DNA of 32,000 bases from Promethearchaeota archaeon (GTDB taxonomy: Archaea; Asgardarchaeota; Lokiarchaeia; Sigyniarchaeales; SOKP01), in contig JAUWGH010000001.1 in NCBI GenBank assembly GCA_030606485.1, forward strand, positions 30,001 to 62,000, given 5' to 3'. This document shows positions 2 through 29,305 of this stretch, in pieces; the stretch's first letter is position 1, and each line of letters opens with the position of its first letter. A program made the position numbers and the translations under genes. The notes under the pieces are model-generated. The model was not told the origin of the DNA, did not search any database, and was given only the letters and a program-made list of their open reading frames with translations.

Positions 2-973
2 TATTACGGAGAAATTAAATGTATTATTCCACGGATTACCTTATTTGGAAAAATAAAAGATGCAGATCCGTTATTTGCACCCTTGATAGGTGATCTTGAT
101 TTAGGTGACTTTAATCCGGAAAAATCAGAGCATAAAGGACCAATGATCGGGAATTATTCATATATAACTGAACTAATTACTTCAATGGATAAAGACACAA
201 CCAAAAATAATTTAACTCGCTATCACGAACAGTATCAAAGGCATGGAGAACCAATTTGTGATTTTCTACTAAAGGATAAAGAATTAATGGATGCAATGGA
301 AAAACTTTCCTCAGCCATAGAGTCAAAAAGAACCAGCTCATCTGTGTCAGTTTGCGCTATAGCAGTACCAAACATACAAGATAAGTCAACAATTGTTGTT
401 GTTCAAGATGAAAGTAAATCACCAAACGCATATGCTACTTGCTTTGAAGCATTATTACGGTTCTCTGCCCTATGTTATGAAGCACCCTCTACAAAAAAAC
501 CTTCAGAAATGAGTACTAGCCCAACACCTCCAACTCAAGCAGGACAGGCTATTGGACCAGGCGGACAGAGATTAGAGGTTTGGACTCAAGAAGAACTTGT
601 AAAAGATGCAGCTGAGCGCGGGCTTGGAACTGGACTTCCACCAAACATGGAACTATGGACTGAAGAGCAATTAATAGATATGGCAAAATCTCGTACTGAT
701 TTAGGAGTTAATTTACCTGAATGGTCTGAAGAAGAACTTGAAAAGCTAACAAAATCTCGTCAGGGAACACTAAATATTCCTGAATGGAAGGATACTGGCT
801 TACCTGTATGTGAAAAGTGTGGTTATACACTCAGAGAAGGTTGGTCTGAGTGCCCTATTTGCAACTGGAAGGTTGGAGCGCCAGTACCTAAAGAAGAGCA
901 AGAAAAAGATAGTTCTGATGATATTGAAAAAATCGAGCAAATTCAAAATGAAGATAAAAATGATTCAGAATGA
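2..973 (+). CDS. Hypothetical protein, 5'-truncated: globular N-terminal region, Pro/Thr linker, 3.5 Trp-anchored helical repeats, C4 zinc ribbon, acidic tail
   Basis: Frame is open from base 2 (YYGEIKCIIPRITLFGKIKDADPLFAPL precedes the TTG called at 83), so the start lies upstream of the window. W[TS]xE[EQ]L repeats; CEKC-x10-CPIC at 809-862. Confidence 0.85.
   Translation, partial: YYGEIKCIIPRITLFGKIKDADPLFAPLIGDLDLGDFNPEKSEHKGPMIGNYSYITELITSMDKDTTKNNLTRYHEQYQRHGEPICDFLLKDKELMDAMEKLSSAIESKRTSSSVSVCAIAVPNIQDKSTIVVVQDESKSPNAYATCFEALLRFSALCYEAPSTKKPSEMSTSPTPPTQAGQAIGPGGQRLEVWTQEELVKDAAERGLGTGLPPNMELWTEEQLIDMAKSRTDLGVNLPEWSEEELEKLTKSRQGTLNIPEWKDTGLPVCEKCGYTLREGWSECPICNWKVGAPVPKEEQEKDSSDDIEKIEQIQNEDKNDSE
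572..790 (+). repeat. Intragenic degenerate tandem repeat (21-25 aa period)
   Basis: LEVWTQEELVKDAAERG / MELWTEEQLIDMAKSRT / LPEWSEEELEKLTKSRQ / IPEWKD. Trp codons at 581, 656, 722, 785. Also visible in DNA (tggactcaagaagaactt vs tggtctgaagaagaactt; aaaatctcgt twice; cctgaatgg twice). Confidence 0.85.
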
Positions 974-1088
974 TATAATTAAATTTTACTATTTTTTAAA
1001 AAATTTTTTTAATCATCCAATTTTTAAATAGTTAATATTTTGAATTATTTTTAATTTACAAAACCAAAAAATAAACCTGATTATTGCT

Positions 1089-2093
1089 ATGCTAAAAGAC
1101 ATATTCTTTATAAACAGTAGAGATTCCAGTGTACTAAATGTTGATTTAACCCAAGATAATTTTTCAAATATGAAAATAATAAGCTATCCAAAAAAATTAT
1201 CTAACATTGTTAAAAACAAGTCTATCTCAGATCTAATATTGAATTTTAAAGAAAAAGTATCCAGTCTCGAGGTGGGAAAAAATAAAACTCCTGTTTTGTA
1301 TTCCCCATTAATTACTGAAGGAATTAACATATATAGCTGTCTAATTTATCCCGATGCAATTATCGGTTTAATTTTGGATAAAGATGATAATCCCTATGAT
1401 TTAAAAGAAGTTTTTCAAGATCAAATTAACAAATATTTTTTACCTCAAAAGAAAAATATTATTAATAATCATTTCGAATTAGAAACACTATTAATCTCAA
1501 TCTTTATAGACATAAGACGATATTATGATGAAATTTTAGGATATTCTCCATTTTTAGCATTTAGAGATCATGGATCGATATTAAAAGTTTTTATTTTTGG
1601 GCTTGATGAAGCTGGTAAAACTTCATATGTACGAAGAATAACTACGGGAGAATATGATGAAAATTATTATGAACCAACTAGACAGTTCAATATTGATCAT
1701 TATACACATAATGATTACAATTTTATTTTTTGGGATGTTCCTGGTCAAGTAAGACTTAGATCTAAGTGGCTTTTAGGGATGCAAGATTCTAATATGTTAA
1801 TATATATGATAGATGCAGCCGATGAAGTAAGATTTGAAGAATCTAAAAAAGAATTATGGAATATTTTAGTTCGATACGAGCTTGAGGGTGTTCCTCTTCT
1901 AATTTTGGCTAATAAAATAGATTTGCCTTTTGCTCTCACATCAGAAAAGGAATTAATCACACATATTAATTTAAATGAAATTACTAATCGGACTTGGGAT
2001 ATTATGACTATTAGTGTAGCAGATAATATTAATATTAAAAAATCTTTAGATTGGTTAAGTGAGAAAGCATCCACAATTTTACCAGATGTCTAA
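1089..2093 (+). CDS. Arf-like small GTPase with N-terminal longin-like domain
   Basis: G1 GLDEAGKT, G2 EPT, G3 WDVPGQ, G4 NKID; Arf-like C-terminus (WDIMTISVADN...LDWLSE). The N-terminal ~150 aa show a longin-like strand/helix pattern (DIFFIN..., YSCLIYPDAIIGLILDKDDN). Confidence 0.88.
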   Translation: MLKDIFFINSRDSSVLNVDLTQDNFSNMKIISYPKKLSNIVKNKSISDLILNFKEKVSSLEVGKNKTPVLYSPLITEGINIYSCLIYPDAIIGLILDKDDNPYDLKEVFQDQINKYFLPQKKNIINNHFELETLLISIFIDIRRYYDEILGYSPFLAFRDHGSILKVFIFGLDEAGKTSYVRRITTGEYDENYYEPTRQFNIDHYTHNDYNFIFWDVPGQVRLRSKWLLGMQDSNMLIYMIDAADEVRFEESKKELWNILVRYELEGVPLLILANKIDLPFALTSEKELITHINLNEITNRTWDIMTISVADNINIKKSLDWLSEKASTILPDV

Positions 2094-2110
2094 AATTTAT
2101 CTTGGCTTGC

Positions 2111-2124
2111 TTTTTTTAATTTTT
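2111..2124 (+). terminator. Putative archaeal oligo(T) terminator
   Basis: T7 run plus further T tract about 18 nt after the GTPase stop; low specificity in an AT-rich genome. Confidence 0.35.
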
Positions 2125-2271
2125 CTTGCATTCTTTTATTATAATTCAAAACATTAAATAAAATAAAAAAACTGAATTATAATTAGGAAGAATATAATAA
2201 TAATAAACACTAATAATAAACAAGAAAAAAATTATAAAAAGGAATTTCAATTAAAACGAAGGCGCGGAAGT

Positions 2272-2793
2272 ATGTTTAAACGGGTAAAAAAAGTAGAAAA
2301 TGTTGTCTTAGATGAAGAAAAATCTCATATTTATTTAAAAGATACAAATTTACCTCTTCTAATGATTAGACCAGAAGAATTAATTGAGTTCGGAGAATTG
2401 GCTGGCTCAGAATCTGTAGATATCCTAATCTGGGTTGGTAAGTCCATTGGCAAATCCATAGCTAAAGAGTTTATTAAAACTAGCGATGTAGCATCATTAA
2501 AATTTCGAGAGAAAATGAAAATAATTAATTCTATACTTGAAATATTACAGAGTTTAGGATATGGAATTCTTGTTTTAAATTATGGAAAGGGAAATATTAC
2601 TATCGATGTGGGAAATCCTCTTTCAAAAGATTATCAAGATAATATTATGGCAAAAAATATTTGTATTATTTACAATGGAATTTTCACAGGTCTTCTTGAA
2701 GTGATAGGAATAGATAGTGAAGGGAGAGAGATTAATTGTATTTTGAAAGGAGCAGATATGTGCTCATTTAAATTTGAGTTTGAGCAAGATTAA
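2272..2793 (+). CDS. V4R (4-vinyl reductase) domain protein
   Basis: LGYG hairpin and C...E-x2-C-x7-C-x-F pattern (NICII...REINCILKGADMCSFKFE) typical of V4R, with the putative Zn ligands present. Confidence 0.88.
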   Translation: MFKRVKKVENVVLDEEKSHIYLKDTNLPLLMIRPEELIEFGELAGSESVDILIWVGKSIGKSIAKEFIKTSDVASLKFREKMKIINSILEILQSLGYGILVLNYGKGNITIDVGNPLSKDYQDNIMAKNICIIYNGIFTGLLEVIGIDSEGREINCILKGADMCSFKFEFEQD

Positions 2794-3020
2794 ATCACAT
2801 TTCTTTTTTATAATAAGATAATCTAAACTTGGGTTTTAAATATTATTTTTAGTTAAATTATTTTTTAATTCAATCATTTCCAATTAAAAAGGAAGTTATT
2901 AAATATAGTTAAAACTCAAAAAAATTGATTAAATTATAAAAGTCAAAATTTAAAATCGATTTCTTTTTTTCTTTATTAATTTACGATAAATATTAACTAT
3001 TAATAAATTTGTGAAAAATA

Positions 3021-5378
3021 TTGACGGAAAAAGGCGCAAGAATAAAAATAGATGAATATAAAGGTCCACTTGGAAAAATTAAGGGTTTTGAGTTCACTGT
3101 TGGCAAAATAGTTTCCAGTGATTATGAAGAATGGGAACCGATGGGTCCAACTCCAAAACCAAGTATTGCAACTTTAAGACCTTGGTTCTTTAAATTAATG
3201 GAACGATATCCTCCTTTTTATATGCCTATCTGTGATATGTGCTGTCTTTGTACCTATGGAAAATGCAATTTATCAAAGGGAAGGACTGGTGCATGCGGAA
3301 TTAATATGGAAGCACAGCAAGGAAGAATAGTTGAGATAGCATGTTGTATAGGTGCAAGTTGCCATAGTTCTCATGGAGATCACTTAATCCATCATTTAAT
3401 GCACAAATTTGGGGATGTGCCAATAAATTTTGGAAGTAAGATTGAAGTTGAAATGCCAATGACTCGATTAATTGTAGGTATGAAACCTGAATGCCTTTCT
3501 GATTGTGCAGAAGCAATGAAATGGGCCCAAAAAACTATTTCACATCTTTTATCTGCAGGACATACTGGTCAAGAATCCAGTTATTTAGATTTTGAATCAA
3601 AAAGTTTTTTAGCGGGTCTTTGTGATAATGTGGGAATGGAGATTGCAGATGCCGTGCAAATTGCCGCGTATGGATTCCCCAAGGGAGAAGCTGATGTCCC
3701 GATAGTAGAATTGGGTATGGGAACACTAGATACAGAAAATAAAGCCATAATTTTGATGATTGGTCACAATGTAGCTCCAGGAATTGAATTAGCAGATTAT
3801 ATGAGAGAAAAAGAATTGGAGAATAAAGTAGATGTGGGTGCTATATGTTGTACTGCAATAGATCTTACTCGATATTATGAAGGTGCTAAAATAGTGGGCT
3901 CATTATCAAGACAATTAAAATACATTCGTTCTGGGTTGGCAGATGTAGTTATGGTAGATGAACAATGCGTTCATTTACGTACTTTTGAAGAAGCAAAGAA
4001 AATAAATGCACCCTATATTGCTACTAATGACAAAAGAATGGAGGGTTTGCCCGATAGAACTGCTGATCCAGCAGAAGAAATTATTGATGATCTAGTCTCA
4101 GGAAAAGCACTAGGTGTGCTCATTCTTGATCCTGAAAAAGCGGGAAAAGTGGCAGTTGAAGTTGCGATTAAAGTAAAACCAATAAGAAAAGGAAAGAAAT
4201 CTATTCCTGATAAAGAAGGGGCAATTGAAATGGCTAAAAAATGTATCACATGTGGAAATTGCCAGAGGAATTGCCCTAATGATTTACCTTTAGTAGATGC
4301 AATAGAGGCAGCAAAGAGTGGAGACTTTAAATTATTAACCGATATTTCAGAATGGTGTTTGGATTGCGGTCGCTGTGAAGGAGAATGTATGCATGGTGTC
4401 TCTCCCTTAGATTTAATCATATTTGCTGGACAAGAATATATCAAAAATGAAACATTTAATATGAGAGTTGGTAGAGGTCCCATACAAGATACAGAAATTC
4501 GTAATGTAGGAGCTCCAATAGTTTTTGGAGAAATTCCTGGTATTATTGCGATTATAGGTTGTGCAAACTATGCTAAAGAAATTCAAGAACTTTATCGTTT
4601 AGCGGAAGAATTTTTAATTAGAAATTATATTGTAGTAGTTACTGGATGCGCTGCAATGGATATTGCATTGGTGAAAAATGAGGATGGTGAAACATTATAT
4701 GATCGATTTACAGGTGAATTTGATCGAGGAGGTTTAGTTAATTGTGGAAGCTGCGTCAGTAATCCTCATATTTGTGGTGCTGCAGTTAAAATTGCAAACA
4801 TTTTTGCAAGGCGTCCATTACGTGGAAATTATGAGGAAATTGCTGATTATGTATTAAATCGAGTTGGAGCAGTAGGCGTTGCTTGGGGGGCTATGTCTCA
4901 GAAGGCGGCAAGTATTGCCAGTAGTGCAAACGGTTTGGGCATACCAGCAATATGTGGTCCTCATGCTGCAGAATATAGAAGGATGTATCTTGGTCGAACT
5001 GATAATGATGAGGTTTGGAAAGCCTATAATGCAAGAGATGGAACGTCAGGGCATCAAGTTGCCCCCGCTCCAGAACACCTTCTAACAACCGCAGAATCAA
5101 TAGAGCAAGCAATTGTCCTCTGTGCTAAGTTTTGTATTCGACCAGCTGATACTACTAAAGGTAGAATGATTAAACTTTCACACTGGATTGACTTATCTCG
5201 CAAATATCTTGGCGTTGATCTTCCAGAAGATTTAGAGAAATATATTCGAGTTGAAGCTGATATCCCAATCAGTATGAAAGCAGAAATCCTAGAATATCTT
5301 AAATCCAAGAAATGGGAGCCAAAAGAAATTATCGATCCTACTATCGTAGAAAGATTATCAAAAATATATTTAAAATAA
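3021..5378 (+). CDS. cdhA: Ni-CO dehydrogenase/acetyl-CoA synthase complex alpha subunit (archaeal type)
   Basis: 785 aa, TTG start. CDMCCLCTYGKC cluster motif; C-cluster ligand motifs GHNV, ICCT, DEQC, GCAN, TGCA, GSCVSN; inserted 2x[4Fe-4S] domain CITCGNCQRNCP / CLDCGRCEGEC. Confidence 0.96.
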   Translation: MTEKGARIKIDEYKGPLGKIKGFEFTVGKIVSSDYEEWEPMGPTPKPSIATLRPWFFKLMERYPPFYMPICDMCCLCTYGKCNLSKGRTGACGINMEAQQGRIVEIACCIGASCHSSHGDHLIHHLMHKFGDVPINFGSKIEVEMPMTRLIVGMKPECLSDCAEAMKWAQKTISHLLSAGHTGQESSYLDFESKSFLAGLCDNVGMEIADAVQIAAYGFPKGEADVPIVELGMGTLDTENKAIILMIGHNVAPGIELADYMREKELENKVDVGAICCTAIDLTRYYEGAKIVGSLSRQLKYIRSGLADVVMVDEQCVHLRTFEEAKKINAPYIATNDKRMEGLPDRTADPAEEIIDDLVSGKALGVLILDPEKAGKVAVEVAIKVKPIRKGKKSIPDKEGAIEMAKKCITCGNCQRNCPNDLPLVDAIEAAKSGDFKLLTDISEWCLDCGRCEGECMHGVSPLDLIIFAGQEYIKNETFNMRVGRGPIQDTEIRNVGAPIVFGEIPGIIAIIGCANYAKEIQELYRLAEEFLIRNYIVVVTGCAAMDIALVKNEDGETLYDRFTGEFDRGGLVNCGSCVSNPHICGAAVKIANIFARRPLRGNYEEIADYVLNRVGAVGVAWGAMSQKAASIASSANGLGIPAICGPHAAEYRRMYLGRTDNDEVWKAYNARDGTSGHQVAPAPEHLLTTAESIEQAIVLCAKFCIRPADTTKGRMIKLSHWIDLSRKYLGVDLPEDLEKYIRVEADIPISMKAEILEYLKSKKWEPKEIIDPTIVERLSKIYLK

Positions 5379-6541: not shown

Positions 6542-7054
6542 GTGAAAAAATTGACTAAAATTTTAGCAGTAATAGGTGGAATTATTGGTATCTTGGCTAC
6601 TGTTTTAACCTTTGTTGAACCCTCGTTAGGATGGTGGGAAGTTAATCAACAGCTAATTGTTACGAACTCAGCTTATTTAAATCCATATGGATATAATGTG
6701 AATGGAGATTTTGCGGGTGAATTGTTTTTAATTGGTGGACTCTTGTTTCTTGCCAGTTCTATTTTAGTAATTTTGGCTGCTGCAAAGGGATCAAAAGGAG
6801 GATCAATTTTATTCGCATTTTTAATGATTGTAGGTCTAGCACTATTCTGTTATGCACTTTATTCTGAAGATCACTTTGAATCTATACTTTCTGGTTTAGA
6901 ATGGCTTTTTGGAGCTGATTACAACGTCTTTTTTGGAAGTGTCGATCTGGGAATTTTTGGATTATATACTTGGAGATTGGGAAATGGATTTTTTGTTGCA
7001 TGTGCTGGGGCAGCAATAAGTTTAGTTGGTGCATTTTTAGTGAAAAGAAAATAA
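6542..7054 (+). CDS. Four-TM membrane protein, claudin/PMP22-like topology
   Basis: Four hydrophobic segments (about aa 7-25, 59-81, 87-107, 146-166); Trp just after TM1; TM4 preceded by WRLGNGFFVA; basic C-terminus KRK. The family call is tentative. Confidence 0.75.
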   Translation: MKKLTKILAVIGGIIGILATVLTFVEPSLGWWEVNQQLIVTNSAYLNPYGYNVNGDFAGELFLIGGLLFLASSILVILAAAKGSKGGSILFAFLMIVGLALFCYALYSEDHFESILSGLEWLFGADYNVFFGSVDLGIFGLYTWRLGNGFFVACAGAAISLVGAFLVKRK

Positions 7055-7192
7055 TAATATTTTAATAATTTCTAATCTGTTTTTTTTTAAATTTTTTAAA
7101 ATTCTTGCAGCATTAAGAGATTTTGACTAAATATTATCTTTAGTTTTGATCTATTATAAAAATAAATAAAGAGATAAAAGAAATTTAAAGAG

Positions 7193-8404
7193 TTAAACGA
7201 AAAGATTTATCAAAGGCATTATTTCTGTGGTGAAGTAATTTAATTTTTCATCTAAAAGTGATACATCTTCACTCAACAACCAAAGATAAACTGGAATCTT
7301 TTTATCGCTATACTCAAATAGTTTTTCTCCCCGAATAGAGAATTTATTTAACCTATATTCGAGCACCATCGAATTTTCTCTTAATAATCCAACTTTTGAA
7401 TGAAAACTCAATAAAGTCTGCATCAACAAAGCAGTATTGTTAATTAATGTTTCATCTACTTCTTTTTCAGCAAAACTACCAAAAATAAGTCCATCCGTAG
7501 AAATAATAGAAATAGCTCTTCCATTAATCAAATTTGAAAATCGAGATAAAATCTTTTCAATAATCTCTGAGGTCTCGGAGATCTTTTTCAAAGCAACTGA
7601 AAACATTTGTTTAATGGTAAAACTTTCGAAAATCGTAGTATTCACAAAATCAAGAGATTCAACACCATAGTCTTTTACCATATTCTTAAATTTGGTTTTT
7701 GCAGATTCAGCATTAGCTAAAGTTGTTTTATCATTTTTCAAATCAGGATCAAATTTATTTAGAATAATTAATAACTCAGGCTTCTCGTTTAAATCCTCGA
7801 GTACTTGAAGAACAATTTTTAGATAATTTGCGGACTCTACGAATCTCTTAGGATCTTGAACGTCAACTACGTATAAAAGTAAATCCGCTTCAGAAAAATA
7901 TAATTCAGGTCTCTTAAAATATAAATTCTCCCGATACTGGATCTGGCCACCTAAATCCCACGATACTACTCCAAAACCAAAGAAATCCAATTGCTCTCTT
8001 TGTACTCCTCTTGTAGGGAGAATATTTTTAACCATAGAATATTTATCTTGAACTACATTTAAAATCGAAGTCTTTCCACCATTATCCAATCCAATCAATA
8101 AAACTTTTTTCTGTGAAAATCTGCTTGAACTTATGAATTCCTGGATTACTTTTGCAATGCTTATCCATTTTTCTAAAATATCTGCGGTAATTTCTTTATT
8201 TTCTAAAATCTTATCATCAGGTAATTCTGCCAGATCTTTAATTGTATTCACTCCCGATTTCTTGAGAATATTTGCACTAATCGTATCAATTCCAATTAGA
8301 GAATCCACTTTGTATTTTATGATTTCCATAATATCATCAATGAGAATGCTTGATTTGAAAAAGCCCTTTATTTTTTCAATGTCATTTTTTCCTGATATTT
8401 GCAT
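7193..8404 (-). CDS. Rag/Gtr-like small GTPase with N-terminal HhH (DUF4332-like) domain and C-terminal roadblock-like domain
   Basis: G1 GLDNGGKT, G2 LPT, G3 WDLGGQ followed by Y-x3-LYF...YF, G4 NKFD, Rag-type G5 TTIFE; roadblock-like ISIISTDGLIFGS; N-terminal LIGIDTISANILKKSGVNTIKDLA...KWISIAK. Confidence 0.88.
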   Translation of the reverse strand: MQISGKNDIEKIKGFFKSSILIDDIMEIIKYKVDSLIGIDTISANILKKSGVNTIKDLAELPDDKILENKEITADILEKWISIAKVIQEFISSSRFSQKKVLLIGLDNGGKTSILNVVQDKYSMVKNILPTRGVQREQLDFFGFGVVSWDLGGQIQYRENLYFKRPELYFSEADLLLYVVDVQDPKRFVESANYLKIVLQVLEDLNEKPELLIILNKFDPDLKNDKTTLANAESAKTKFKNMVKDYGVESLDFVNTTIFESFTIKQMFSVALKKISETSEIIEKILSRFSNLINGRAISIISTDGLIFGSFAEKEVDETLINNTALLMQTLLSFHSKVGLLRENSMVLEYRLNKFSIRGEKLFEYSDKKIPVYLWLLSEDVSLLDEKLNYFTTEIMPLINLFV

Positions 8405-8782
8405 ATTCTAAATTCATTTTATTTGTTTAATTTTAAAATCAAATTAAATTAATATATTAATAATATTATTTATTTAAAATTATATTAATTATTTGCAAAA
8501 ATATCATAAAAAAAATCATCAAAAACACTTTTATTTTTATCTATTTATTTACACCAATTACAAAATTTATTTCAATTAGAATTTATAGAAAAAATGAATA
8601 TATAGAGTAGAATTGAACCTTAAGTATCTTCTTGCAATCTGCATTCTATTTGTCCCTTTTTATAAAAGTTTTTATAAGAGTTAATTTCTATTATATTCAT
8701 AAATACAACTTGAAAGGATTAATTTCCTCTTAGTTCATTAAAAAATTATTTAATTATTAAAAATATTTCTTCTAAAATTAAA

Positions 8783-9985
8783 ATGAGCCAACGAGTCTCT
8801 GAAAATATTATCATATGTGTTGACGTCAGTCGTTCAATGTATAGAAAGGATTATATACCAAATAGATTAGAATCTTGTATAAAGGCTCTACAAATCCTCG
8901 TTTCTACAAGGCTTCAAAAAGATCCATCAACTTCTTTTGCGATTATAACGATATCTGACAATCCTAAACTCGTTTTGGATTTCAATAGCAATGAAGATAT
9001 AATAATTAAAAATTTAAATAATATTGAATTTGGAGGAAGATCCACTCTGGGGAATACTCTCGCTCTCGGAATCCAAAAACAAATAGGTGAACTAAGAAAA
9101 ATCAGTGCTAAAGTGCCACGAATTTTAATAATTTCTGATGGAAATTATACAAAAACTTCAATTGATCCTTTAAAGATGGCTAATTTAGCAAGTAAGTTAA
9201 AAATAAAGATAGATACAATAAGATTGGGTGAATTAACTCATTTTAATATATTAAAAAGATTGTCAGAGGTCACTAAAGGACAATACTTTTATAATAATGA
9301 TTCTGAGAGTATGCTTAATTCAGCTAGAGTAGTTGCTACATCAAATGTAAGAATTGATATAATAGATATCAAGTCAGCTATTGAAAATCCAGCTTTCTTA
9401 CGTAAAATTGCTGCCTCTCTCTTAAGAACACAGGATTTAACTACAAACCAACAAGAGCGGATAAAACAAATTCGCGGAGAGGTTGATTATAAAAAATGTT
9501 CTATTTGTTTTTCTGATATATGTCCATATTGTGGAGGAACTTTCTTTACAGAGGGAAGATATTGTCCCGATTGTCAAATCCCGATGCACCTCCACTGTGC
9601 CACGGCTTACGCGGCAAGTTTATCAGATGATAAACTAAAAGCTTCAGGGACTTTTCGTTGCCCTCATTGTTTCTATCTTTTAAAAATTCCAGTAGAGGTA
9701 CAGCAAATTACAAAACTGCAAGCATTAAGAAAACCAAGTCTGATTTCTAAATCTGAAACAAATGATGTTTTTTATGCAAAAAAGACATCTTCTTCAGAGT
9801 TAGGTGATGAGGCCCTTTATAGCTCCTGCCCTGTATGTAATATGATATTTGAGGAGGAACAAGATATAATCAAATGTGGTAACTACAAATGTAATGCATT
9901 ATACCACATAAAATGCTTTGAAAAATTAATAGATTCAAGATGTAAAAGCTGCGGAAAAGAGTTGAAATTTGAGGAAGAAGAATAA
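8783..9985 (+). CDS. vWA domain protein with two C-terminal C4HC3 RING/PHD-like zinc fingers
   Basis: MIDAS DVSRS and ISDG in aa 1-190; finger 1 CSIC..(CPYC)..CPDC-x4-H-x2-C..CPHC (9497-9670); finger 2 CPVC-x12-C-x4-C-x4-H-x2-C-x8-CKSC (9827-9952). Confidence 0.9.
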   Translation: MSQRVSENIIICVDVSRSMYRKDYIPNRLESCIKALQILVSTRLQKDPSTSFAIITISDNPKLVLDFNSNEDIIIKNLNNIEFGGRSTLGNTLALGIQKQIGELRKISAKVPRILIISDGNYTKTSIDPLKMANLASKLKIKIDTIRLGELTHFNILKRLSEVTKGQYFYNNDSESMLNSARVVATSNVRIDIIDIKSAIENPAFLRKIAASLLRTQDLTTNQQERIKQIRGEVDYKKCSICFSDICPYCGGTFFTEGRYCPDCQIPMHLHCATAYAASLSDDKLKASGTFRCPHCFYLLKIPVEVQQITKLQALRKPSLISKSETNDVFYAKKTSSSELGDEALYSSCPVCNMIFEEEQDIIKCGNYKCNALYHIKCFEKLIDSRCKSCGKELKFEEEE

Positions 9986-10062
9986 AAAGACTAATTTTTA
10001 ATAGATTCATATCTTTCTAATCTAAATTATATTAAGATATTCAAGTCTTTTAAAGTAAAATT

Positions 10063-10743
10063 ATGGAGTTCATGAATTTATTCTTTAATGAAGATTTATT
10101 TAAAAATAAGTTAAAAAAATTTAATTCGCCTTTAAGAATTTCCTTTAGAGATAATTGCTTAATAAGTTCAGCGATATTATTTTTAATTATTCCAAATGAT
10201 AAAAAACCCTATAATTTAGTTTTAATTCAACGAGCACATAGATCTAATGATAAATATTCAGGAGAAATGTCGTTCCCGGGAGGTTTATATAATCCCCAAT
10301 TAGATGATACATATAAAGATACAGCGTTAAGAGAGACTGAAGAAGAATTAGGTATCCCAAGAGATAAAATTCAAATAATCGGATGCATTGATGATGTTAT
10401 TACACCTAAAAGACATGTAATTTCTCCTTTTGTAGGATATACAGATAAACACCAGAAAATGATTAAATGTGATGATGAAGTGGAAGAAATTATAAAAATT
10501 CCGATCTCCTTCTTTGTTGATAAAAAAAATTATATTGAGAGAGCATATAAGCTAAGGGGTGAATCCATTGCCGTCGGTAAATATACTTATAAAACAAATA
10601 ACAAAAAATATGTCATATTTGGAGCGACTTCTCATATGATTGTAAATTTCATTGAATTAATTTACAATTTAAAATTCATAAAGTCAGGAGCACGGCGAAT
10701 AATTCTCGAAGATTTGAAATCTAGATATTCCAAAACATCATAA
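10063..10743 (+). CDS. Nudix hydrolase, CoA pyrophosphatase (NudL/PCD1-like) family
   Basis: Nudix box GG...TALRETEEELGI preceded by IQRA...SGEMSFPGG; C-terminal IFGATS motif. Confidence 0.9.
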   Translation: MEFMNLFFNEDLFKNKLKKFNSPLRISFRDNCLISSAILFLIIPNDKKPYNLVLIQRAHRSNDKYSGEMSFPGGLYNPQLDDTYKDTALRETEEELGIPRDKIQIIGCIDDVITPKRHVISPFVGYTDKHQKMIKCDDEVEEIIKIPISFFVDKKNYIERAYKLRGESIAVGKYTYKTNNKKYVIFGATSHMIVNFIELIYNLKFIKSGARRIILEDLKSRYSKTS

Positions 10744-15761: not shown

Positions 15762-17963
15762 ATGACTGAACAAAACTCTGATATGAAAGGGAAATCTATC
15801 AATTTTCCTCTCGTATTTCATTTCCATCAACCCGTAGATAATTTTAATTGGGTTATTGAGGACTGCTATAAAAAAGCATATGAACCATTGATTGATCAAA
15901 TGTTCGATTTTCCAGAAATAAAGTTTACACTCCATTTTTCAGGAAATCTTCTAGATTGGTTCTGTGATAATGAGCCAGAAATTGTGGAAAAATTGAAGAA
16001 AATGTCAAAAAGAGACCAAATTGAAATAATTGGTGGCGGTTATTATGAACCGATATATGCAATAATTCCTGATGAGGATAAAATCGCTCAAATGAATAAA
16101 TTAAGCAAACGTATAATGGATGAATTTGGATTAAAGGTCAATGGAGCATGGTTGAGCGAAAGGGTGTGGGAACCTGACTATCCATCTTTTATAAGTAAGG
16201 TTGGATTAAAATATATCTTAGTTGATGATAACCACCTCAAAGCCTGCGGTCTTGAAGAAGGAGATACATTTTATTCCTATACGACCGAAGATGGAGGCAA
16301 CATTCTAACAATTTTTCCTATTAATGAAGAGATTAGATATTTAACTCCTTGGAAACCTACTTTTATGACAATTGATTATTTAAAAAAATCCGCTGATGAA
16401 AATGGTGACCGAATAGTTGTCCTTTTAAGTGATGCCGAAAAGATGGGTGTATGGGGGACCACACATGAGATTTGTTATATTAAAGGACATTATGATGGGG
16501 ACGACAAAAAGCCATTTATTCCAGCTTTGTTTGAAACAATTTTCGATAATGATTGGATAAAAAGCCTTACTTTATCAGAATATATTAAAAAATATAGATC
16601 TAAAGGTTTAATATATATTCCGACATCATCTTATGACAAAATGGAGGAGTGGGTGCTTCCTACTAAACAGAGGATAGAATTTAAAAAAATTAAAGAAAAA
16701 ATTGAAAATCGCATTATCGATTCGAAAATTGAAAGGTTTATTAAGGGTGGATTCTGGCGGTATTTCTTAGTAAAATACCCTGAATCGAATACGATGCATA
16801 AAAAGATGCTTTACGTTCGTAATAAATTAAAAATCATCGAAAATAAAATAACAAAATTGGGGAATCAAGATCAAAAACTTCAAGAATTATTATCGAATGC
16901 TTGGGACGAGGTTTATAAAAGTCAATGCAACGACTGTTATTGGCACGGACAATTTGGGGGAATCTACCTTGCATTTTTACGCTTTTCTATATTTACTCAT
17001 ATTATAAACGCAGAAAAAATAATAACTAAGATTGAAAATCTCTTAATTAACAAATATAGCGATCAGACGATCATTCCACTCAGTAAAAGTCCAAGAATTC
17101 ATGTATTAGATTTTGATTTTGACAGTTTTGAAGATATAATAATGGAATCGGATATTTTCAATTTATATGTAAAACCAAGATTAGGATGTTTTCTTTTTGA
17201 GTTAGATTTTAAGCCAAAATCATACAATTTACTTAATGTTCTTACTAGATGGCATGAATCTTATCATGAAAAGGAAGAAGTTATTATTGATTCTTTTAGA
17301 AAAGGAATGCTTAGGACTATGATATTTCATAAAGATACCACAGTAAAAGAACTTGGTCGAAATTCTTATAAAGAATTAGGTGATTTTATTTTAGGAAATT
17401 ATGAAATTCTTGAAAAAACAATTAATGATGATATTGCAATAGTTAAATTGAAATATTCGGGAAGCATAACTGAACCAGAATCCGGTCAAAAACTTGAATT
17501 TGATCTAATTAAAATAATTAAACTTCAATCTGGGTCTAATAAATTCAATGTTTCATTTAATTTACAGCCGTCTATTGAAAACAATAATCCAGAGATATTG
17601 AACGAAATTTTAAATGATTTAAGGATAGGTATTGAGGTTCCCTTTTTCTTTAATGGAGATCCAAAACAATTTAAATACACTTTTAATGAAGATAAGTTAA
17701 AAATCTTAAAAAATGATTCAAACACTGATTTCACTAAAGTAAAGCCCTTCCAAAAATGTAATTTATTTAGTGCCTATGATCAAACATACGACTTAACATT
17801 TACAGTAAAAGTTTTGGAAAATACACAAAACGCTAATATGGGAAAATATTCAATAAAAACATTTTCAAGAACGAATACCGGATATCAAAAAATATTTCAA
17901 GGCTTAAATATCATAGTAACTAATAGTCTAGTCGATTTTGAGCTCGAATTTTCGGTAATTTAA
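15762..17963 (+). CDS. GH57 alpha-amylase / 4-alpha-glucanotransferase (AmyA-like)
   Basis: FHFHQP, nucleophile motif WLSERVW, acid/base motif SDAEKMG, QCNDCYWHGQFGGIY, C-terminal beta-rich domain. Confidence 0.93.
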   Translation: MTEQNSDMKGKSINFPLVFHFHQPVDNFNWVIEDCYKKAYEPLIDQMFDFPEIKFTLHFSGNLLDWFCDNEPEIVEKLKKMSKRDQIEIIGGGYYEPIYAIIPDEDKIAQMNKLSKRIMDEFGLKVNGAWLSERVWEPDYPSFISKVGLKYILVDDNHLKACGLEEGDTFYSYTTEDGGNILTIFPINEEIRYLTPWKPTFMTIDYLKKSADENGDRIVVLLSDAEKMGVWGTTHEICYIKGHYDGDDKKPFIPALFETIFDNDWIKSLTLSEYIKKYRSKGLIYIPTSSYDKMEEWVLPTKQRIEFKKIKEKIENRIIDSKIERFIKGGFWRYFLVKYPESNTMHKKMLYVRNKLKIIENKITKLGNQDQKLQELLSNAWDEVYKSQCNDCYWHGQFGGIYLAFLRFSIFTHIINAEKIITKIENLLINKYSDQTIIPLSKSPRIHVLDFDFDSFEDIIMESDIFNLYVKPRLGCFLFELDFKPKSYNLLNVLTRWHESYHEKEEVIIDSFRKGMLRTMIFHKDTTVKELGRNSYKELGDFILGNYEILEKTINDDIAIVKLKYSGSITEPESGQKLEFDLIKIIKLQSGSNKFNVSFNLQPSIENNNPEILNEILNDLRIGIEVPFFFNGDPKQFKYTFNEDKLKILKNDSNTDFTKVKPFQKCNLFSAYDQTYDLTFTVKVLENTQNANMGKYSIKTFSRTNTGYQKIFQGLNIIVTNSLVDFELEFSVI

Positions 17964-18083
17964 TCAATTATATTACATTTTTGTCTTAAGTATCGACGAA
18001 AATTTATATATCTTTTAAATATAAAGTAATGTTAAGAATTAAATAATAATATAATTCATTTATATTTGAAGGTTTATTTAATT

Positions 18084-18212
18084 ATGAACCCGCCCCTCAA
18101 TGAAGCAGATGGAAAATATAAAATAAAACATAATAATAAAAATTCTCAGACTCCAGATTGGGGTTTTGGCTCTAAATCTCAAAAAAAAAGACGTAATAAA
18201 AAAAGAAATTAA
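18084..18212 (+). CDS. Candidate 42-aa basic small protein (not in ORF track)
   Basis: ATG...TAA, MNPPLNEADGKYKIKHNNKNSQTPDWGFGSKSQKKRRNKKRN; GAAGGT about 11 nt upstream; GC-containing codons within otherwise AT-only intergenic DNA. Confidence 0.35.
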   Translation: MNPPLNEADGKYKIKHNNKNSQTPDWGFGSKSQKKRRNKKRN

Positions 18213-18235
18213 AAATTTATCTTATTCCTTATTTT

Positions 18236-19201
18236 TTACTTTTTTATTTTTCTCAAAGTTTCAAATGATCCATACCCATTTTTATTATCATCTAATTGGT
18301 AATCAGCAAATGATTGAATAAGAATGGATTTATTACCCTCATTATCCTGAAAGGGGACCGGAATAATTGATCTCACACGTGCTTTCAGAATATGCTTATC
18401 ATTTAAAGAGTCAATTAATTCAAGTTCTGAACTAATTGGAAATATATTATCTTCACGAAATCGTTGATTTATAATTCGAATCGTTTTTAAAGGAATGTTC
18501 TGGCCGTCTTTAAAAAGAAAACCACCTGCAGATAATCTGCCATCATCAGCTATAATAACTGCCGGGTTTATCGCTAAATTTTCATTAAACCACACAACAT
18601 AGTACAACCAATTTCCCACACCAGTCCAATCTCGAATACCGTAGGTATGATCTCGTTGCCCGAGAGTATTTCGAATAGGATATATTTTTTCACCGACCTG
18701 AATCTCCCCAGAAATCTTAGCAATCTGCTCCCAGTGTTTATCTCCCGCCTTTTTTCCAAGCTCTAACGACTCGGGGGTCATATTCTCACTAAATTCATAC
18801 ACATCATTAATTGGATCAAAATTGAGATCTATCTTTACTTTATGAGCTCCCGCTATTAATTTTGGTTGTTCCCTTACTTTCGGCAAATCTTCTGGATTCT
18901 TGACCATAATCATATTTCCATTAAATTTATATTTCCATTTTCCATCGGGTTGACACATATGAGCCATACCACCTACTTTAAATGGAGTTGAATATTCTTT
19001 AATCTTCTCAATTTGATGATATCCACCGGCTGAACCATCCGGCAAAAAGAGAAATAAAAAAGTCATTCCTTCTGGCTTATTTGGCTTAAATCCGATTCTC
19101 GACATTCCGCCTAAATTTATTTCTTTATCATAAAACACAAAATAATAGGATTCATTCCATTCGGGATGAGTTGTTTTACATTCATGAGTTTTTGGTTCTA
19201 T
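18236..19201 (-). CDS. DUF7064/DUF7065-like protein (tocopherol cyclase/CrtC/AttH-like beta-barrel superfamily)
   Basis: HWEQ...GQRDHTYGIRDW and WNESYYFVFYD...GGMSRIGFKPN motifs. The frame is open 5' of the GTG at 19138 up to the TGA at 19252, and the WNESYYF motif lies upstream of that GTG. Start placed at ATA 19201 behind an SD-like AAGGTG (inference). Confidence 0.7.
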   Translation of the reverse strand: MEPKTHECKTTHPEWNESYYFVFYDKEINLGGMSRIGFKPNKPEGMTFLFLFLPDGSAGGYHQIEKIKEYSTPFKVGGMAHMCQPDGKWKYKFNGNMIMVKNPEDLPKVREQPKLIAGAHKVKIDLNFDPINDVYEFSENMTPESLELGKKAGDKHWEQIAKISGEIQVGEKIYPIRNTLGQRDHTYGIRDWTGVGNWLYYVVWFNENLAINPAVIIADDGRLSAGGFLFKDGQNIPLKTIRIINQRFREDNIFPISSELELIDSLNDKHILKARVRSIIPVPFQDNEGNKSILIQSFADYQLDDNKNGYGSFETLRKIKK

Positions 19202-19208
19202 TTTTCTA

Positions 19209-19214
19209 CACCTT
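19209..19214 (-). promoter_or_regulatory. Shine-Dalgarno-like AAGGTG
   Basis: 7 nt upstream of the in-frame ATA at 19201; same geometry as the SD at 26605-26610. Confidence 0.45.
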
Positions 19215-19261
19215 GTTAAATTTTGAATTTTTGTTTCTAATAATTTAATTCAATTTTAAAG

Positions 19262-21994
19262 TTATTTTTGAAGGGTAATCCAACCATTATTTCCATTAAT
19301 TGTGACAATCTGACCTGTTTGGAAAAGCTTACATGCATTTGGAATATTTGTTACAGCCGGAACGCCGTATTCCCTCGATATAACTGCTCCATGGGAAAGA
19401 ATACCGCCTGTTTCTGTGATTAAACCTGCAATTTTCGAAAAAATCGGGGTCCAACCAGGATCTGTTCGAGGTACTACGAGAATCTCACCTGCTTTAACAC
19501 TTGGGATATCCTCAATCTTAGTTAATACACGTATTGGTGCAGTATTAATTCCTTGACTTGCGGGAATTCCTCGAAAAGATGTACTTTCTTTTGTAAATTG
19601 AGTTGGGTCGTTGAATTCCTGCGAACCTTCGATGAATTTTGGTGGTATGATATTTTCATATTTTAAAAATTCTTCATATCGTTTTTTAACTAAGGTCCAG
19701 ATTTTACTAACTTCGTTATCACTTAAATCCTGAAAAGCTAATTTTTTAATTTCTTTTTTGTGTAAAAAGAAAATCTCGATCGGTTTTTGTAATTTTCCTT
19801 GACGTTTGAATTGCTCTCCAATTTCCAAGAATATATGTCGATTCCTTGTAATCCACCGATCCAGATTAAACCGTTGATTCTCGCGAAATATGATATATCT
19901 GCGAGCAAATTTTAAAATTATTGAAAATATTTTCCATTTTAAAAAGCCCAATCTCGTTGATCTGATTTTTTGCTGAACTATACCATCAATATTTTCTTGA
20001 ACAATTGTTCTTTTTGAACTTTCTTTTTCTATTTCTTGAACTTCACCTGCGACTAGAGATTTTAAGATATCAAATACATATTCAGGGGCATCCCTCCAAC
20101 GTGGATAATAAGGTTCTCTCGTGAACCCACGGTCGCCATGGTCTTTTAAAAATTTTTCAAACTCTTTATAAAAACTTTTAATAACTGGAATTTTTTCGGA
20201 TGATAAATAAGAATAAAATTCTTTTGAATCCTTTTCGAGAATCTTCTCTCTCAGTTCTGGGACTCCGCGAATAAAGATCGCTAGATCATGTATTCGTTCA
20301 TTCGTTTCGGTCAATTTGTGCTTTAAATTTGATATTAATATCGGATATAACCGTTGCATCTCTTTCTTTCCAAGAAATCGAGTCAGTAGGTACTGAGCCA
20401 TTAAATTCATCCCAATATTATGAACTGGTATCCCATAGCGAACAAGACGGAAATGGGCAACCATTTTTTGGTCTAATTCTTCAGCTAAATCAATAAGAGC
20501 TTTAATATTTCCGGTTCCTATTAAATTTTCTAAACGTGGATCGAATTCATCGCAATATGGAAAAAATTCTTCTTGGGTCCAGGTCTCATACTTTGAATCA
20601 GTTTTTGTCATTGAACCATCAGAATCATATAACATTACTCGTAATTCTGCAACTATTCGCTTTAAAAGACGAAAAGGTAGTTTTTTTATAGTTTTTTTAC
20701 CAAATGGTCCAGAACCTTCTGGAAAATAATTTAAAAGATCTTCATTACGTATAAAATCCGGTATTTCATATTCTACTTTTCGCTTCATCACCTCGAGATT
20801 GAAATATACATGTGCTTTGAAGGGTTTCATTAACTTTTTCTCCATGCGTTGGTACCCCATAATTTGGTTTAGATCCATATTTACAACCAAAATCAATTGA
20901 TCTCCTAAAAGATCAAAAAATAAAGGAGTAACAGGATCATTCCAATAATCGTCGGAATATCCTCGACTCCAAATAATCTTCTCAACGGGTTGAGCAGACT
21001 TCATTGAGGTTATTGGCCGCGTTTGGAGAAGATGGATTTGATCGTTTTGATCGATTGCCCATTCAATATCTTGAGGAGATCCAAATTGATGTTCTATTTC
21101 TCTCCCTATTTGGGCGAGTTGGATTATTTGTTTATCAGAAAGGGAAGACTTTCTATTCATATCATCAGATAATTTGATATATTCAATTCCATTCTCATTT
21201 TCTGAAGATTTTGGGTGTGCAGCAACATTTTTTAAGCCAATTCTCTTCTTAAGAATCTTAAATATTTTTTTTTTAAATGAATCATCTTTATGAACTGTAA
21301 ATTGGTCCGGACTGATCTGTCCTGACATAACAGATTCACCTAATCCAAAATTAGATTCGATAAGCAAATTTGAACTTTCTAATGATATTGGGTCTGCTGT
21401 AAACATAACTCCTGCACTTTTAGCCGGAATCATCTTTTGAATAATAACTGCTAATTCAGCATTATCATGAGGAATTTGGTTTTCATTCCGATATACAATA
21501 GCTCGACTAGTCCAGACCGATGAGTAGCATCGCTTAATATATTGAAGTATCTCATCAAAACTCTTAAGATTAAGATTTAGGAAAGATTCGTATTGTCCTG
21601 CAAAAGAAGCTGTTGGTAAATCTTCTGATAAACCGGATGAGCGAATGACAAAATTATTTTTTCCTAAATATTCAAATCTTTTTTTAATCTCTTCCACCAA
21701 TTTAGGAGGAAGAAATGCTCGTTCAATTTCTTCTGTAATTTTCCTTGAACAAGTCTCAATCGTTTCATAATTAGAATAATCAATATCTTCTAGAAATTTT
21801 TGAATTAACATTTCGAGATTATTTGCTTTTAGAAATAAAGAGTATGCCGCAACAGTAATAACAAACCCTTCTGGAACAGAAAAATTTTTCTGAATTAATG
21901 TTCCAAGATTTGCAGCCTTACTCCCTATCTTATTTATATCCTTTTCAGTAATATCTTTTAGATTTAATATTAAAGACTCCGTAATTACCATCAC
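19262..21994 (-). CDS. PEP-utilising dikinase-like phosphotransferase, rifampin phosphotransferase/PigC architecture
   Basis: N-terminal ATP-grasp (GSKAANLG, IRSSGLSED, SFAGQYES, DIEWA, LQTRPIT), long central helical domain, C-terminal phospho-His swivel domain (TETGGILSHGAVISREYGVP); no pyruvate-binding barrel. Start GTG 21994 or ATG 21991. Confidence 0.88.
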   Translation of the reverse strand: MMVITESLILNLKDITEKDINKIGSKAANLGTLIQKNFSVPEGFVITVAAYSLFLKANNLEMLIQKFLEDIDYSNYETIETCSRKITEEIERAFLPPKLVEEIKKRFEYLGKNNFVIRSSGLSEDLPTASFAGQYESFLNLNLKSFDEILQYIKRCYSSVWTSRAIVYRNENQIPHDNAELAVIIQKMIPAKSAGVMFTADPISLESSNLLIESNFGLGESVMSGQISPDQFTVHKDDSFKKKIFKILKKRIGLKNVAAHPKSSENENGIEYIKLSDDMNRKSSLSDKQIIQLAQIGREIEHQFGSPQDIEWAIDQNDQIHLLQTRPITSMKSAQPVEKIIWSRGYSDDYWNDPVTPLFFDLLGDQLILVVNMDLNQIMGYQRMEKKLMKPFKAHVYFNLEVMKRKVEYEIPDFIRNEDLLNYFPEGSGPFGKKTIKKLPFRLLKRIVAELRVMLYDSDGSMTKTDSKYETWTQEEFFPYCDEFDPRLENLIGTGNIKALIDLAEELDQKMVAHFRLVRYGIPVHNIGMNLMAQYLLTRFLGKKEMQRLYPILISNLKHKLTETNERIHDLAIFIRGVPELREKILEKDSKEFYSYLSSEKIPVIKSFYKEFEKFLKDHGDRGFTREPYYPRWRDAPEYVFDILKSLVAGEVQEIEKESSKRTIVQENIDGIVQQKIRSTRLGFLKWKIFSIILKFARRYIIFRENQRFNLDRWITRNRHIFLEIGEQFKRQGKLQKPIEIFFLHKKEIKKLAFQDLSDNEVSKIWTLVKKRYEEFLKYENIIPPKFIEGSQEFNDPTQFTKESTSFRGIPASQGINTAPIRVLTKIEDIPSVKAGEILVVPRTDPGWTPIFSKIAGLITETGGILSHGAVISREYGVPAVTNIPNACKLFQTGQIVTINGNNGWITLQK

Positions 21995-22200
21995 CGAATA
22001 TTTTTTTAAAATTTTTTAAAAAAGTGATAATAGATATCAAAAAATATTAATAATTATTAAAAGTTTTTTTAAAATCTATATTAAATGAAGTTTTATAATA
22101 AGTAATCCAAACTCGGAAACATATGAATTTATTGAAAATTATAATATATTTAATGACAAATTTTTTTTTGGGGTAATGGATCATTACTGATTTAGACATT

Positions 22201-23442: not shown

Positions 23443-23502
23443 AAAATTTAAAAAAATTTGATTAAAATATTTAAATTATAAAAGATTTATATCTGAAGAT
23501 TT

Positions 23503-24654: not shown

Positions 24655-24741
24655 CTTTCTCTTAGTTGTTTTCATCTAGAACGTAAAATAAATTGTCCTG
24701 TATTAATAAAAAAAGAAGAATTTAGTTTTTATTTAAATTTA

Positions 24742-26466: not shown

Positions 26467-26604
26467 TTTATTATCAAATCCAATTTTTTACTTTATCAAA
26501 ATTCTATGAAAGAAAATTTATTATTTTATCTATAAAATTAAATTTCTTAATTTTATTCTTTCCATAAAATTAATTAAAAATGTTAAATTAATTTATTTTT
26601 AAAA

Positions 26605-26610
26605 AGGTGG
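26605..26610 (+). promoter_or_regulatory. Shine-Dalgarno AGGTGG
   Basis: 7 nt upstream of ATG 26618. Confidence 0.6.
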
Positions 26611-26617
26611 ATCCACG

Positions 26618-29190: not shown

Positions 29191-29305
29191 AAAAAATCAA
29201 TTATCTTATAAACTCCTATATTTTTATTAAAATCTAAATATATAATTTATTTAAAGAATCAAGATTTATTTTATTTTGAATAAAAAAAGGAAGGCTTCTT
29301 TTATT

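Follow-up and report, generated by a model that had tools for sequence, protein, structure and literature searches.

A Rag-like GTPase gene and a vWA-RING gene form a conserved divergent pair in one order of Lokiarchaeia

Asgard archaea carry dozens of eukaryote-like small GTPases, and to our knowledge almost nothing is known of the partners of these proteins. A stretch of 32,000 nucleotides (nt) from a Promethearchaeota archaeon of the class Lokiarchaeia (contig JAUWGH010000001.1, positions 30,001 to 62,000; hereafter the window) raises the question of whether the partner of one such GTPase is encoded next door. A Rag-like GTPase gene (403 residues; 7193..8404, - strand) and a gene for a protein with a vWA domain followed by two RING modules (vWA-RING; 400 residues; 8783..9985, + strand) lie head to head in the window, separated by an A+T-rich intergenic spacer of 378 nt (8405..8782). 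Both genes were identified from the list of open reading frames (ORFs), Pfam and AlphaFold2 (AF2) models, and the GTPase gene also from Foldseek. This layout had been described in an earlier, sequence-only reading of the window, and it is confirmed by the ORFs, the Pfam matches and the invariant zinc ligands of the RING modules. Each gene encodes a known kind of protein, and what is new is their constant pairing. We tentatively propose, with somewhat less than even confidence, that the two genes form a switch-plus-ligase pair, functionally coupled and specific to a single Lokiarchaeial order, in which the GTPase would bind, gate or be modified by a protein with putative ligase activity.

Conservation and specificity of the gene pair

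The order to which the window belongs was sampled with 41 genomes from four families (here f1 to f4) and 23 genera. The GTPase and vWA-RING genes are adjacent and divergent in 30 of these genomes (22 in f1, seven in f2 and one in f3), and in three more they lie 2-3 kb apart with one or two genes inserted. The inserted genes encode a 692-residue leucine-rich repeat (LRR) protein in G009 (L038:3627-5705) and a proteasome alpha subunit and a SNAP/TPR-like protein in G030 and G034. In G036, the vWA gene is preceded by an IS110-family transposase gene (L047:2985-4499) and the GTPase gene is at the end of another contig; in G037, the two genes are not adjacent within 2.4 kb. G006 and G010 are broken at contig ends, and G031 has no clear orthologue of either gene. 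Three f4 genomes have both genes unlinked, on different contigs or 187 kb apart.

A second sample consisted of 80 public loci from genome contigs that were fetched through the vWA-RING protein. A GTPase orthologue is present in 71 of them; the other nine end 452 nt or less upstream. The pair is adjacent and divergent in 69 of the 71 loci, a count which, like that for the genomes, does not represent independent events, as the two samples overlap and consist of relatives. One of the remaining two loci has a 2.7-kb LRR-gene insertion and the other is adjacent but co-directional (L054/L136), so this pair was rearranged yet stayed together. The adjacency, which the sequence-only reading had proposed to look for across Lokiarchaeia, is therefore not unique to this genome. 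Loci with the pair include those titled Promethearchaeum syntrophicum MK-D1 (L139) and Candidatus Lokiarchaeum ossiferum (L141).

Homologues of the vWA-RING protein (33-36% identity) and of the three-domain GTPase (28-30% identity; blastp) are encoded in five genomes from other orders of the class, where the two genes do not adjoin. When the phylum was sampled with 101 genomes, 17 had a match to the vWA-RING profile with an E-value of 1e-40 or lower; all 17 belong to f1 or f2, and at this threshold none of the 84 genomes from other Asgard classes was matched. Linkage is found in only three families, all of the same order, and within the samples searched the vWA-RING family is confined to Lokiarchaeia. 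In a quick tree of the vWA-RING protein, the unlinked f4 sequences branch first in the GTPase-linked clade, with an approximate likelihood-ratio (SH-aLRT) support of 98 for the linked remainder. The tree as a whole consists of three clades meeting at one node, so that the homologues of other orders are possible orthologues. Because the f4 sequences are basal to the GTPase-linked clade, a single event near the base of the order, either a gain or a loss, accounts for the distribution of the linkage. Nine vWA-RING loci with 52-55% identity, as found for f1 loci, are titled Hermod-, Hod-, Thor- or Odinarchaeota or, in one case, Nanopelagicaceae bacterium (L081, L087, L096, L100, L106, L110, L111, L116 and L134); the bins with these titles are probably mislabelled or contaminated.

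Because a larger block is syntenic in f1, this family alone proves little. The f1 block comprises genes for an unknown 296-residue protein, an Arf-like GTPase, a V4R-domain protein and a CODH/prismane protein, followed by the pair, an ArsR regulator and two unknown proteins. The synteny between the pair and the part to its left in the window (83-5378), from the unknown protein to the CODH/prismane protein, extends to five f1 genera, including that of the window. More telling is the comparison between families. In two f2 genomes, only the GTPase and vWA-RING genes, out of 13 window genes, recur within 20 kb of each other, and in f3 only the pair and one other window gene recur. The GTPase/vWA-RING adjacency is the only one of this neighbourhood that survives between families. 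Among 42 loci with full flanks and less than 60% identity, the pair is kept in all 42, and the six flanking genes are kept in 28, 28, 25, 1, 0 and 0. No GTPase gene adjoins the vWA-RING paralogue encoded elsewhere in the genome of the window (G000:C1:89825-90967; 34% identity), whose neighbours are conserved at most within the genus. A functional link between the two genes is therefore plausible, given a pair kept in 30 of 41 genomes and 69 of 71 loci that is also the sole between-family adjacency.

Such conservation might also be expected if the two genes share a regulatory region, or were simply never separated, and their products make no contact. This explanation, which we regard as rather unlikely, is consistent with a layout that is divergent and not that of an operon, with the extensive f1 synteny around the pair, with the separation tolerated in f4 and other orders and with the lack of fusion proteins among the relatives searched. 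It fits less well with a pair that outlasts every other adjacency of the neighbourhood when f1 is compared with f2 and f3, that is still adjacent after the inversion in L054/L136 and that is still found within 2-3 kb after insertions. The spacer also argues against it. The spacing between the two tblastn matches ranges from 151 to 664 nt across the 69 adjacent loci, and no conserved central element was seen in the spacer, either in the same-genus comparison or in upstream alignments of 53 related loci. The motifs conserved in these alignments are start-proximal only. They are an AGG-like word approximately 10 nt 5' of the vWA-RING start and CGATGTA 4-10 nt 5' of the GTPase start; these words are possibly ribosome-binding sites, which would imply leadered mRNAs. 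Within the window, the region 7000-10200 has no Rfam match with an E-value of 1 or lower, and the spacer has no ORF longer than 33 residues.

The sequence-only reading had considered the pair to be co-regulated and had drawn attention to tandem TTTTATAA boxes near 8658-8677. A motif search finds two such words on the + strand (8658-8665 and 8670-8677), 106-125 nt from the vWA start and approximately 250 nt from the GTPase start. The word occurs 25 times in the window, compared with 15.6 +/- 4.5 times in shuffled sequences (25 or more in 4 of 100 shuffles), and so is not enriched above chance. As the G+C content of the spacer is only 11-23%, TATA-like words are expected there. In three same-genus genomes in which both proteins are 92-97% identical to those of the window, the spacer is nearly identical, and in one of these the first box is altered. 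The fourth and most distant same-genus genome (68% protein identity) has a 197-nt spacer in which the box segment has no alignable counterpart. Because of their distance from both starts, the boxes are weak evidence for a shared promoter, and this interpretation was dropped, given that they are neither enriched nor conserved beyond near-identical relatives. The boxes are genuine, but count for little.

Several other neighbours of the pair were recorded. In the block to its left, the Arf-like GTPase (1089-2093) has a 160-residue N-terminal extension and is followed by the genes for the V4R-domain protein (2272-2793) and the CODH/prismane protein (3021-5378); in the genus of the window, this CODH gene is separated from the Rag-like GTPase gene by inserted genes for an Mrp/NUBPL ATPase and a membrane protein. 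Two loci (L060:5349-6650 and L061:3297-4652) encode an additional, highly diverged vWA-like protein beyond the far side of the GTPase gene (433 and 451 residues; 25-28% identical to the vWA-RING protein). A SNAP/TPR-like protein of approximately 380 residues is encoded downstream of the vWA-RING gene in 68 of the 80 loci, across f1, f2 and f3 (for example L089:6354-7493, L032:4277-5422, L139:6157-7293 and L030:904-2046). This protein is absent from the window, where a NUDIX gene (10063-10743) occupies that side, and was not found with the same query in any of five genomes of the window's genus, so it cannot be essential to the pair. Further downstream (15762-27997 and 29276-30559) are genes for glycogen and sugar metabolism, encoding a GH57 amylase-like protein, a GH57 branching enzyme, a sugar nucleotidyltransferase, a phosphoglucomutase and a PEP-utilising enzyme, and, within the same part of the window, a RadA/Rad51 gene with a double HhH head. 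Both the glycogen-metabolism genes and the RadA/Rad51 gene are outside the conserved core of the pair.

The two proteins

The GTPase has the conserved domain Gtr1_RagA (PF04670; E-value: 4e-22, 79.2 bits against a cut-off of 22, model positions 1-214 of 232). Because the Pfam Arf model scores almost the same (E-value: 1.2e-21, 77.4 bits), sequence alone does not separate Rag from Arf. The AF2 model (mean predicted local distance difference test [pLDDT] score: 82, predicted TM-score [pTM]: 0.78) has a helical head (residues 1-92), a G domain (100-275) and a roadblock domain (278-402) with the topology alpha-beta-beta-alpha-beta-beta-beta-alpha. The domains are assigned to the - strand as follows: HhH-like head, residues 1-95 (8120..8404; AF2 model and sub-threshold Pfam matches), G domain, residues 96-277 (7574..8119; alignment of 26 orthologues) and roadblock domain, residues 278-403 (7196..7573; AF2 model and structural alignment). 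The top Foldseek match is LokiRagO (PDB 8yl2; E-value: 4e-18, 28% identity, TM-score 0.77 on the target), followed by RagA/C, Gtr1/2 and LokiRagM (8zla and 9m28). The alignments to RagA/C, Gtr1/2 and LokiRagO span the G domain and the roadblock domain together (298-325 columns). When a profile built from the orthologues was searched against the PDB, it also matched 8yl2 (6.1e-59) and 8zla (1.2e-46). The protein can thus be called Rag-like, as a member of the established Lokiarchaeial family of that kind; with 28 matches to the Gtr1_RagA model in this genome, it has many paralogues.

The G1-G4 motifs of this protein are intact: GLDNGGKTS (G110 and K111), T131, WDLGGQ (D150, G153 and Q154) and NKFD (K217 and D219). 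All eight of these numbered residues, including the switch II glutamine Q154, are invariant in 26 orthologues, among which the first G4 position varies (N, S, H or T). Because of this invariance, the GTPase should bind and hydrolyse GTP, and from its motifs it should be catalytically competent. The modelled roadblock domain is presumably used for dimerisation. In one f3 genome, a second Rag-like GTPase (L030:4708-5622; 304 residues, 36% identical) is encoded directly downstream of the orthologue; it has a G domain and a roadblock domain without the HhH head, and is a possible heterodimer partner.

The head consists of five helices in the model (residues 2-15, 25-30, 41-49, 55-59 and 74-92). 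HHH_5 matches are sub-threshold in 8 of 20 orthologue N-termini (best E-value: 4.5e-4), an RNA_pol_A_CTD match on the head of the window protein has an E-value of 6.8e-4, and a search of the ESM Atlas with the N-terminal 95 residues gave no usable match. In 19 of 26 orthologues the head is acidic overall, which favours a protein-docking module over a DNA binder. A role of the pair in defence was considered and dropped: PADLOC gave a weak, generic LeoA match for the GTPase (9.3e-6) and none for the vWA-RING protein.

The vWA-RING protein begins with a vWA domain (residues 1-190; 8783..9352, + strand), which is matched by VWA_2 (E-value: 3.4e-14), VWA (1.5e-12) and Ssl1 (2.3e-9; 37.8 bits against a cut-off of 27), as well as by profile and structure searches. 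Public records of its relatives name them only "VWA domain-containing protein" or "YegL". The domain has a MIDAS-type motif (DxSxS...S/T...D) that is conserved in 27 orthologues: D14, S16 and S18 are at least 90% conserved, D119 is invariant and S87 is serine in 24 and asparagine in three. The AF2 model of the protein has a pLDDT of 83 and a pTM of 0.66.

Two zinc modules of the cross-brace type follow. Module 1 (residues 236-305; 9488..9697, + strand) has the C4HC3 ligands C239, C242, C261, C264, H269, C272, C293 and C296. Pfam zf-RING-like matches it only weakly (residues 254-280; 18.8 bits against a cut-off of 26.6), but all eight ligands are invariant in the 27 orthologues and it can therefore be classified as a RING-like module. 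Module 2 (residues 346-400; 9818..9982, + strand) is of the C4HC3 or RING-H2-like type. Seven of its ligands (C349, C352, C365, C370, H375, C387 and C390) are invariant in the same orthologues, and position 378 is mostly cysteine, with histidine in some. This module has a marginal match to Prok-RING_1 (residues 348-382; E-value: 3.8e-7, 30.4 bits against a cut-off of 29.1). Solved RING domains of ubiquitin ligases (E3s) are the best, though weak, profile matches of the C-terminal half: module 2 matches the RING-H2 domains of Arkadia, RLIM and RNF165 (E-values: 0.0035-0.03) and module 1 weakly matches the RINGs of NSE1, FANCL and listerin (E-values: 0.04-0.6). Module 1 has I241 in 26 of the 27 orthologues, W276 in 25 (tyrosine in two, including the window protein) and P294 in 19. 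We take these to be the positions at which canonical RINGs contact the ubiquitin-conjugating enzyme (E2), namely an isoleucine after ligand 1, a tryptophan after ligand 6 and a proline after ligand 7. In module 2, V351 is found in 23 and L382 in 26 of the 27 orthologues, and the proline is absent.

The structure searches raise a different possibility. Full-length chains of TFIIH p44/Ssl1 are the top matches of the vWA-RING model in both Foldseek (E-value: 6.5e-17, approximately 400 columns) and VIA-align (Z-score: 25-26), and together with the above-cut-off Ssl1 match in Pfam they would suit an Asgard counterpart of p44 that works alongside a helicase during transcription or repair, with DNA bound by the HhH head of the neighbouring GTPase. 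This role is very improbable. The full-length alignments have a root mean square deviation (rmsd) of 14-20 A, and the p44 vWA domain alone aligns with a Z-score of 25.6 (rmsd 2.0 A, 182 residues), such that the remainder of the chain adds only 0.4. What is shared is therefore a p44/Rpn10-type vWA domain and the order vWA-zinc-zinc, not the packing of the modules. The TFIIH zinc domain C1_4 (PF07975) has no match in the protein (E-value cut-off: 0.01) or in the whole genome (cut-off: 0.1), and Tfb2/p52 (PF03849) has no match in the genome, although the control matched in no genome either. In addition, the acidic head is a poor candidate for binding DNA and no helicase gene adjoins the pair. Membership of the p44 family was accordingly rejected: the Ssl1-type vWA domain is present, but no C1_4 domain was found. 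In searches of the PDB, the vWA profile matches Rpn10 (4.2e-17) ahead of TFIIH p44 (4e-13). The other VIA-align Z-scores for this domain are 23.1-23.7 for BatB-type proteins, 23.0-23.6 for Rpn10, 22.3 for ArnB and approximately 21.9 for integrin I domains.

Proposed coupling of the GTPase to a putative RING ligase

The genome encodes components with which a RING ligase could work. A UQ_con E2 gene (G000:C10:380617-381024; E-value: 1.7e-25) and a ubiquitin-family gene (G000:C10:752621-752812; E-value: 2.7e-9) are present, both away from the pair. The E2 gene adjoins IS605 OrfB/TnpB-like and HAD hydrolase genes rather than lying in a ubiquitin operon (G000:C10:379117-382524). In five f2 genera, a proteasome alpha-subunit gene is located within approximately 2 kb of the vWA-RING gene (for example L139:5256-5969, L032:3542-4264 and L184:104-826). 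The corresponding gene of the window's own genome (G000:C10:25800-26495) is approximately 11 kb from the pair, and none was found in an additional 7-12 kb of flanking sequence in four other f1 genera; proximity to the proteasome gene is not conserved in f1.

The switch-plus-ligase reading is supported by an adjacency that is conserved and specific to these two genes, the invariant GTPase motifs together with the conserved RING ligands, E2-type residues and MIDAS, and the presence in the genome of an E2 and a ubiquitin-family gene, with a proteasome alpha-subunit gene nearby in f2. From the gene structure, domains, motif conservation, adjacency and ubiquitin-related genes, all of which were obtained directly, we infer physical binding, ligase activity and a direction of control. 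Jointly with this reading, and with the same reserve, the vWA-RING protein can be regarded as a putative RING-type E3-like protein, whose module 1 appears from its sequence to carry the E2-holding residues of canonical RINGs.

The proposed model for the interaction of the two proteins is as follows. The Rag-like GTPase, probably dimeric via its roadblock domain, would dock on the vWA-RING protein in one nucleotide state. The vWA domain, with its intact MIDAS, would serve as the docking module, an acidic side chain possibly completing the MIDAS site. RING module 1 would recruit the charged UQ_con E2, and GTP binding or hydrolysis would gate the transfer of the ubiquitin-like protein to the GTPase itself or to a client that it holds. 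The fullest version of this model, a GTPase-gated ubiquitin-type ligase in which the Rag-like switch binds the MIDAS face, turns the RING E3 on or off and feeds substrates to the proteasome, is unlikely.

A number of points weigh against a switch-plus-ligase pair. The RING matches to solved E3s are weak, with E-values of 0.0035 or worse, and Prok-RING_1 exceeds its cut-off by 1.3 bits only. RING domains can be purely structural, and co-regulation by itself can be enough to preserve a divergent pair. Given the syntenic block of approximately 15 kb in f1, most of the raw counts derive from related genomes and overstate independence. Since homologues of both genes also occur apart from each other in three f4 genomes and in three other orders, any real link between them would not be obligatory. 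Finally, no fused GTPase-vWA-RING protein was found among the relatives searched: a search for longer vWA-RING relatives returned one protein, with a vWA domain only, and none of nine longer or odd matches of a representative search has a GTPase domain.

The two proteins might instead interact without ubiquitin, the vWA-zinc protein being a scaffold, a cofactor of a GTPase-activating protein or nucleotide exchange factor, or an effector, and its RINGs being structural or protein-binding. The zinc modules of p44 have such a structural role in TFIIH, and a vWA domain and a zinc finger form the core of Sec23/24, which works with the GTPase Sar1. Archaeal ArnA-ArnB is described as a counterpart of Sec23/24 (PMC12852372; PDB 8s05, VIA-align Z-score: 22.3), and in eukaryotic CPRas proteins a Ras-like GTPase is described as fused to a vWA domain and a zinc finger, to which a RING is added in Naegleria (PMC2430557). 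We consider this explanation unlikely: no Sec23/24 chain is among the Foldseek and VIA-align matches listed, which does not exclude one, the vWA-RING model has none of the beta-sandwich, helical and gelsolin domains found in Sec23/24, and the conservation of I241, W276 and P294 fits an E2-binding RING.

Comparison with published work and known systems

Tran et al. (2024; PMC10933270) describe Rag-like GTPase-roadblock fusions in MK-D1 and comment that the partners or regulators of a GTPase can seldom be recognised from operon or genome layout. The terms "vWA" and "RING" are absent from the main text of that paper. RagA-like GTPases are abundant in Asgards according to Liu et al. (bioRxiv 10.1101/2020.10.19.343400). 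The literature searched contained no description of the GTPase/vWA-RING pair and no paper on LokiRagO or LokiRagM, although the data supplement of PMC10933270 may already list the architecture of the GTPase. A pair that is stable across an order amid changing surroundings is a rare and cheap lead to a GTPase partner, and it names one candidate, ubiquitin-ligase-like partner for one defined Rag-like GTPase. As the pair is present in loci titled as two cultured species (L139 and L141), the proposal can be tested with recombinant proteins. If the GTPase-gated ligase were true, it would be the first archaeal small GTPase to be matched to a specific partner, and it would show in archaea the kind of crosstalk between GTPases and ubiquitin to which the Rag, Arf and Rab switches of eukaryotes are subject.

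The closest known structures are those of the Lokiarchaeial Rag-like proteins. LokiRagO (8yl2) and LokiRagM (8zla/9m28) have a G domain and a C-terminal roadblock domain, as does the window GTPase, but they are paralogues of it and not orthologues. The alignment to 8yl2 begins only at profile position 79, leaving the HhH-like head of approximately 90 residues as an extra domain of the window protein. Their PDB titles describe them as homotetrameric and monomeric. RagA/B-RagC/D and Gtr1-Gtr2 have the same two-domain architecture (approximately 300 columns, TM-score 0.73-0.78 on the target); RagA/C and Gtr1/2 are 17-20% identical to the window GTPase, which differs in its additional N-terminal domain.

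The Rag GTPases of eukaryotes are obligate heterodimers via their roadblock domains, and they are controlled via ubiquitin and RING proteins, including the RING subunits of GATOR2, RNF152 and SKP2. The likeness of this control to the window pair is a functional analogy only. We know of no Ragulator, GATOR or TOR partners in archaea. Pfam found no Ragulator, GATOR or TORC1 domains in the neighbouring vWA-RING gene, and no search aimed at such partners was made. Among GATOR features, Pfam found no WD40, DEP or DEPDC5-type domain in the vWA-RING protein, all of whose Pfam matches are to vWA and RING/PHD-type families, and its model has no propeller; DEPDC5 and GATOR2-type WD40-RING chains are not among the matches listed from the PDB profile, Foldseek and VIA-align searches, which does not exclude them. 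The sequence-only reading had speculated that the pair is a precursor-like nutrient-signalling module. That suggestion is without support: no GATOR features were found by Pfam or among the matches listed, the vWA domain is closest to those of p44 and Rpn10, and in the samples searched the family is found only in Lokiarchaeia and the linkage only in three families. There is no tie of the pair to nutrient sensing, and the pair does not bear on the origin of TOR or GATOR signalling; in the sampled genomes, no member of the partner family was found beyond Lokiarchaeia. The earlier interpretation is thus partly supported, in that the conserved pair is probably functional while its proto-nutrient part is without evidence.

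For the vWA-RING protein, the best comparisons are with p44 and Rpn10. TFIIH p44 (GTF2H2/Ssl1) has a vWA domain and then two zinc modules in the same order, and Ssl1 has reported E3 activity. The vWA-RING protein differs from p44 in that both of its zinc modules are C4HC3 with an eight-ligand pattern, its MIDAS is intact and the packing of its modules is different. Rpn10 (PSMD4) provides the best sequence-profile match to the vWA domain among solved structures (4.2e-17), and the plant, yeast and human proteins align to it with an rmsd of 2.2-2.4 A (Z-score: 23.0-23.6); the likeness is limited to the vWA domain, as Rpn10 has ubiquitin-interacting motifs and not RINGs. Other systems, including Sec23/24-Sar1, ArnA-ArnB and CPRas, likewise combine a small GTPase, a vWA domain and zinc modules, as outlined in PMC2430557 and PMC12852372. 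These differ from the window pair in domain order and accessory domains, and in the window the GTPase is encoded by a separate gene, standing head to head with that of its candidate partner.

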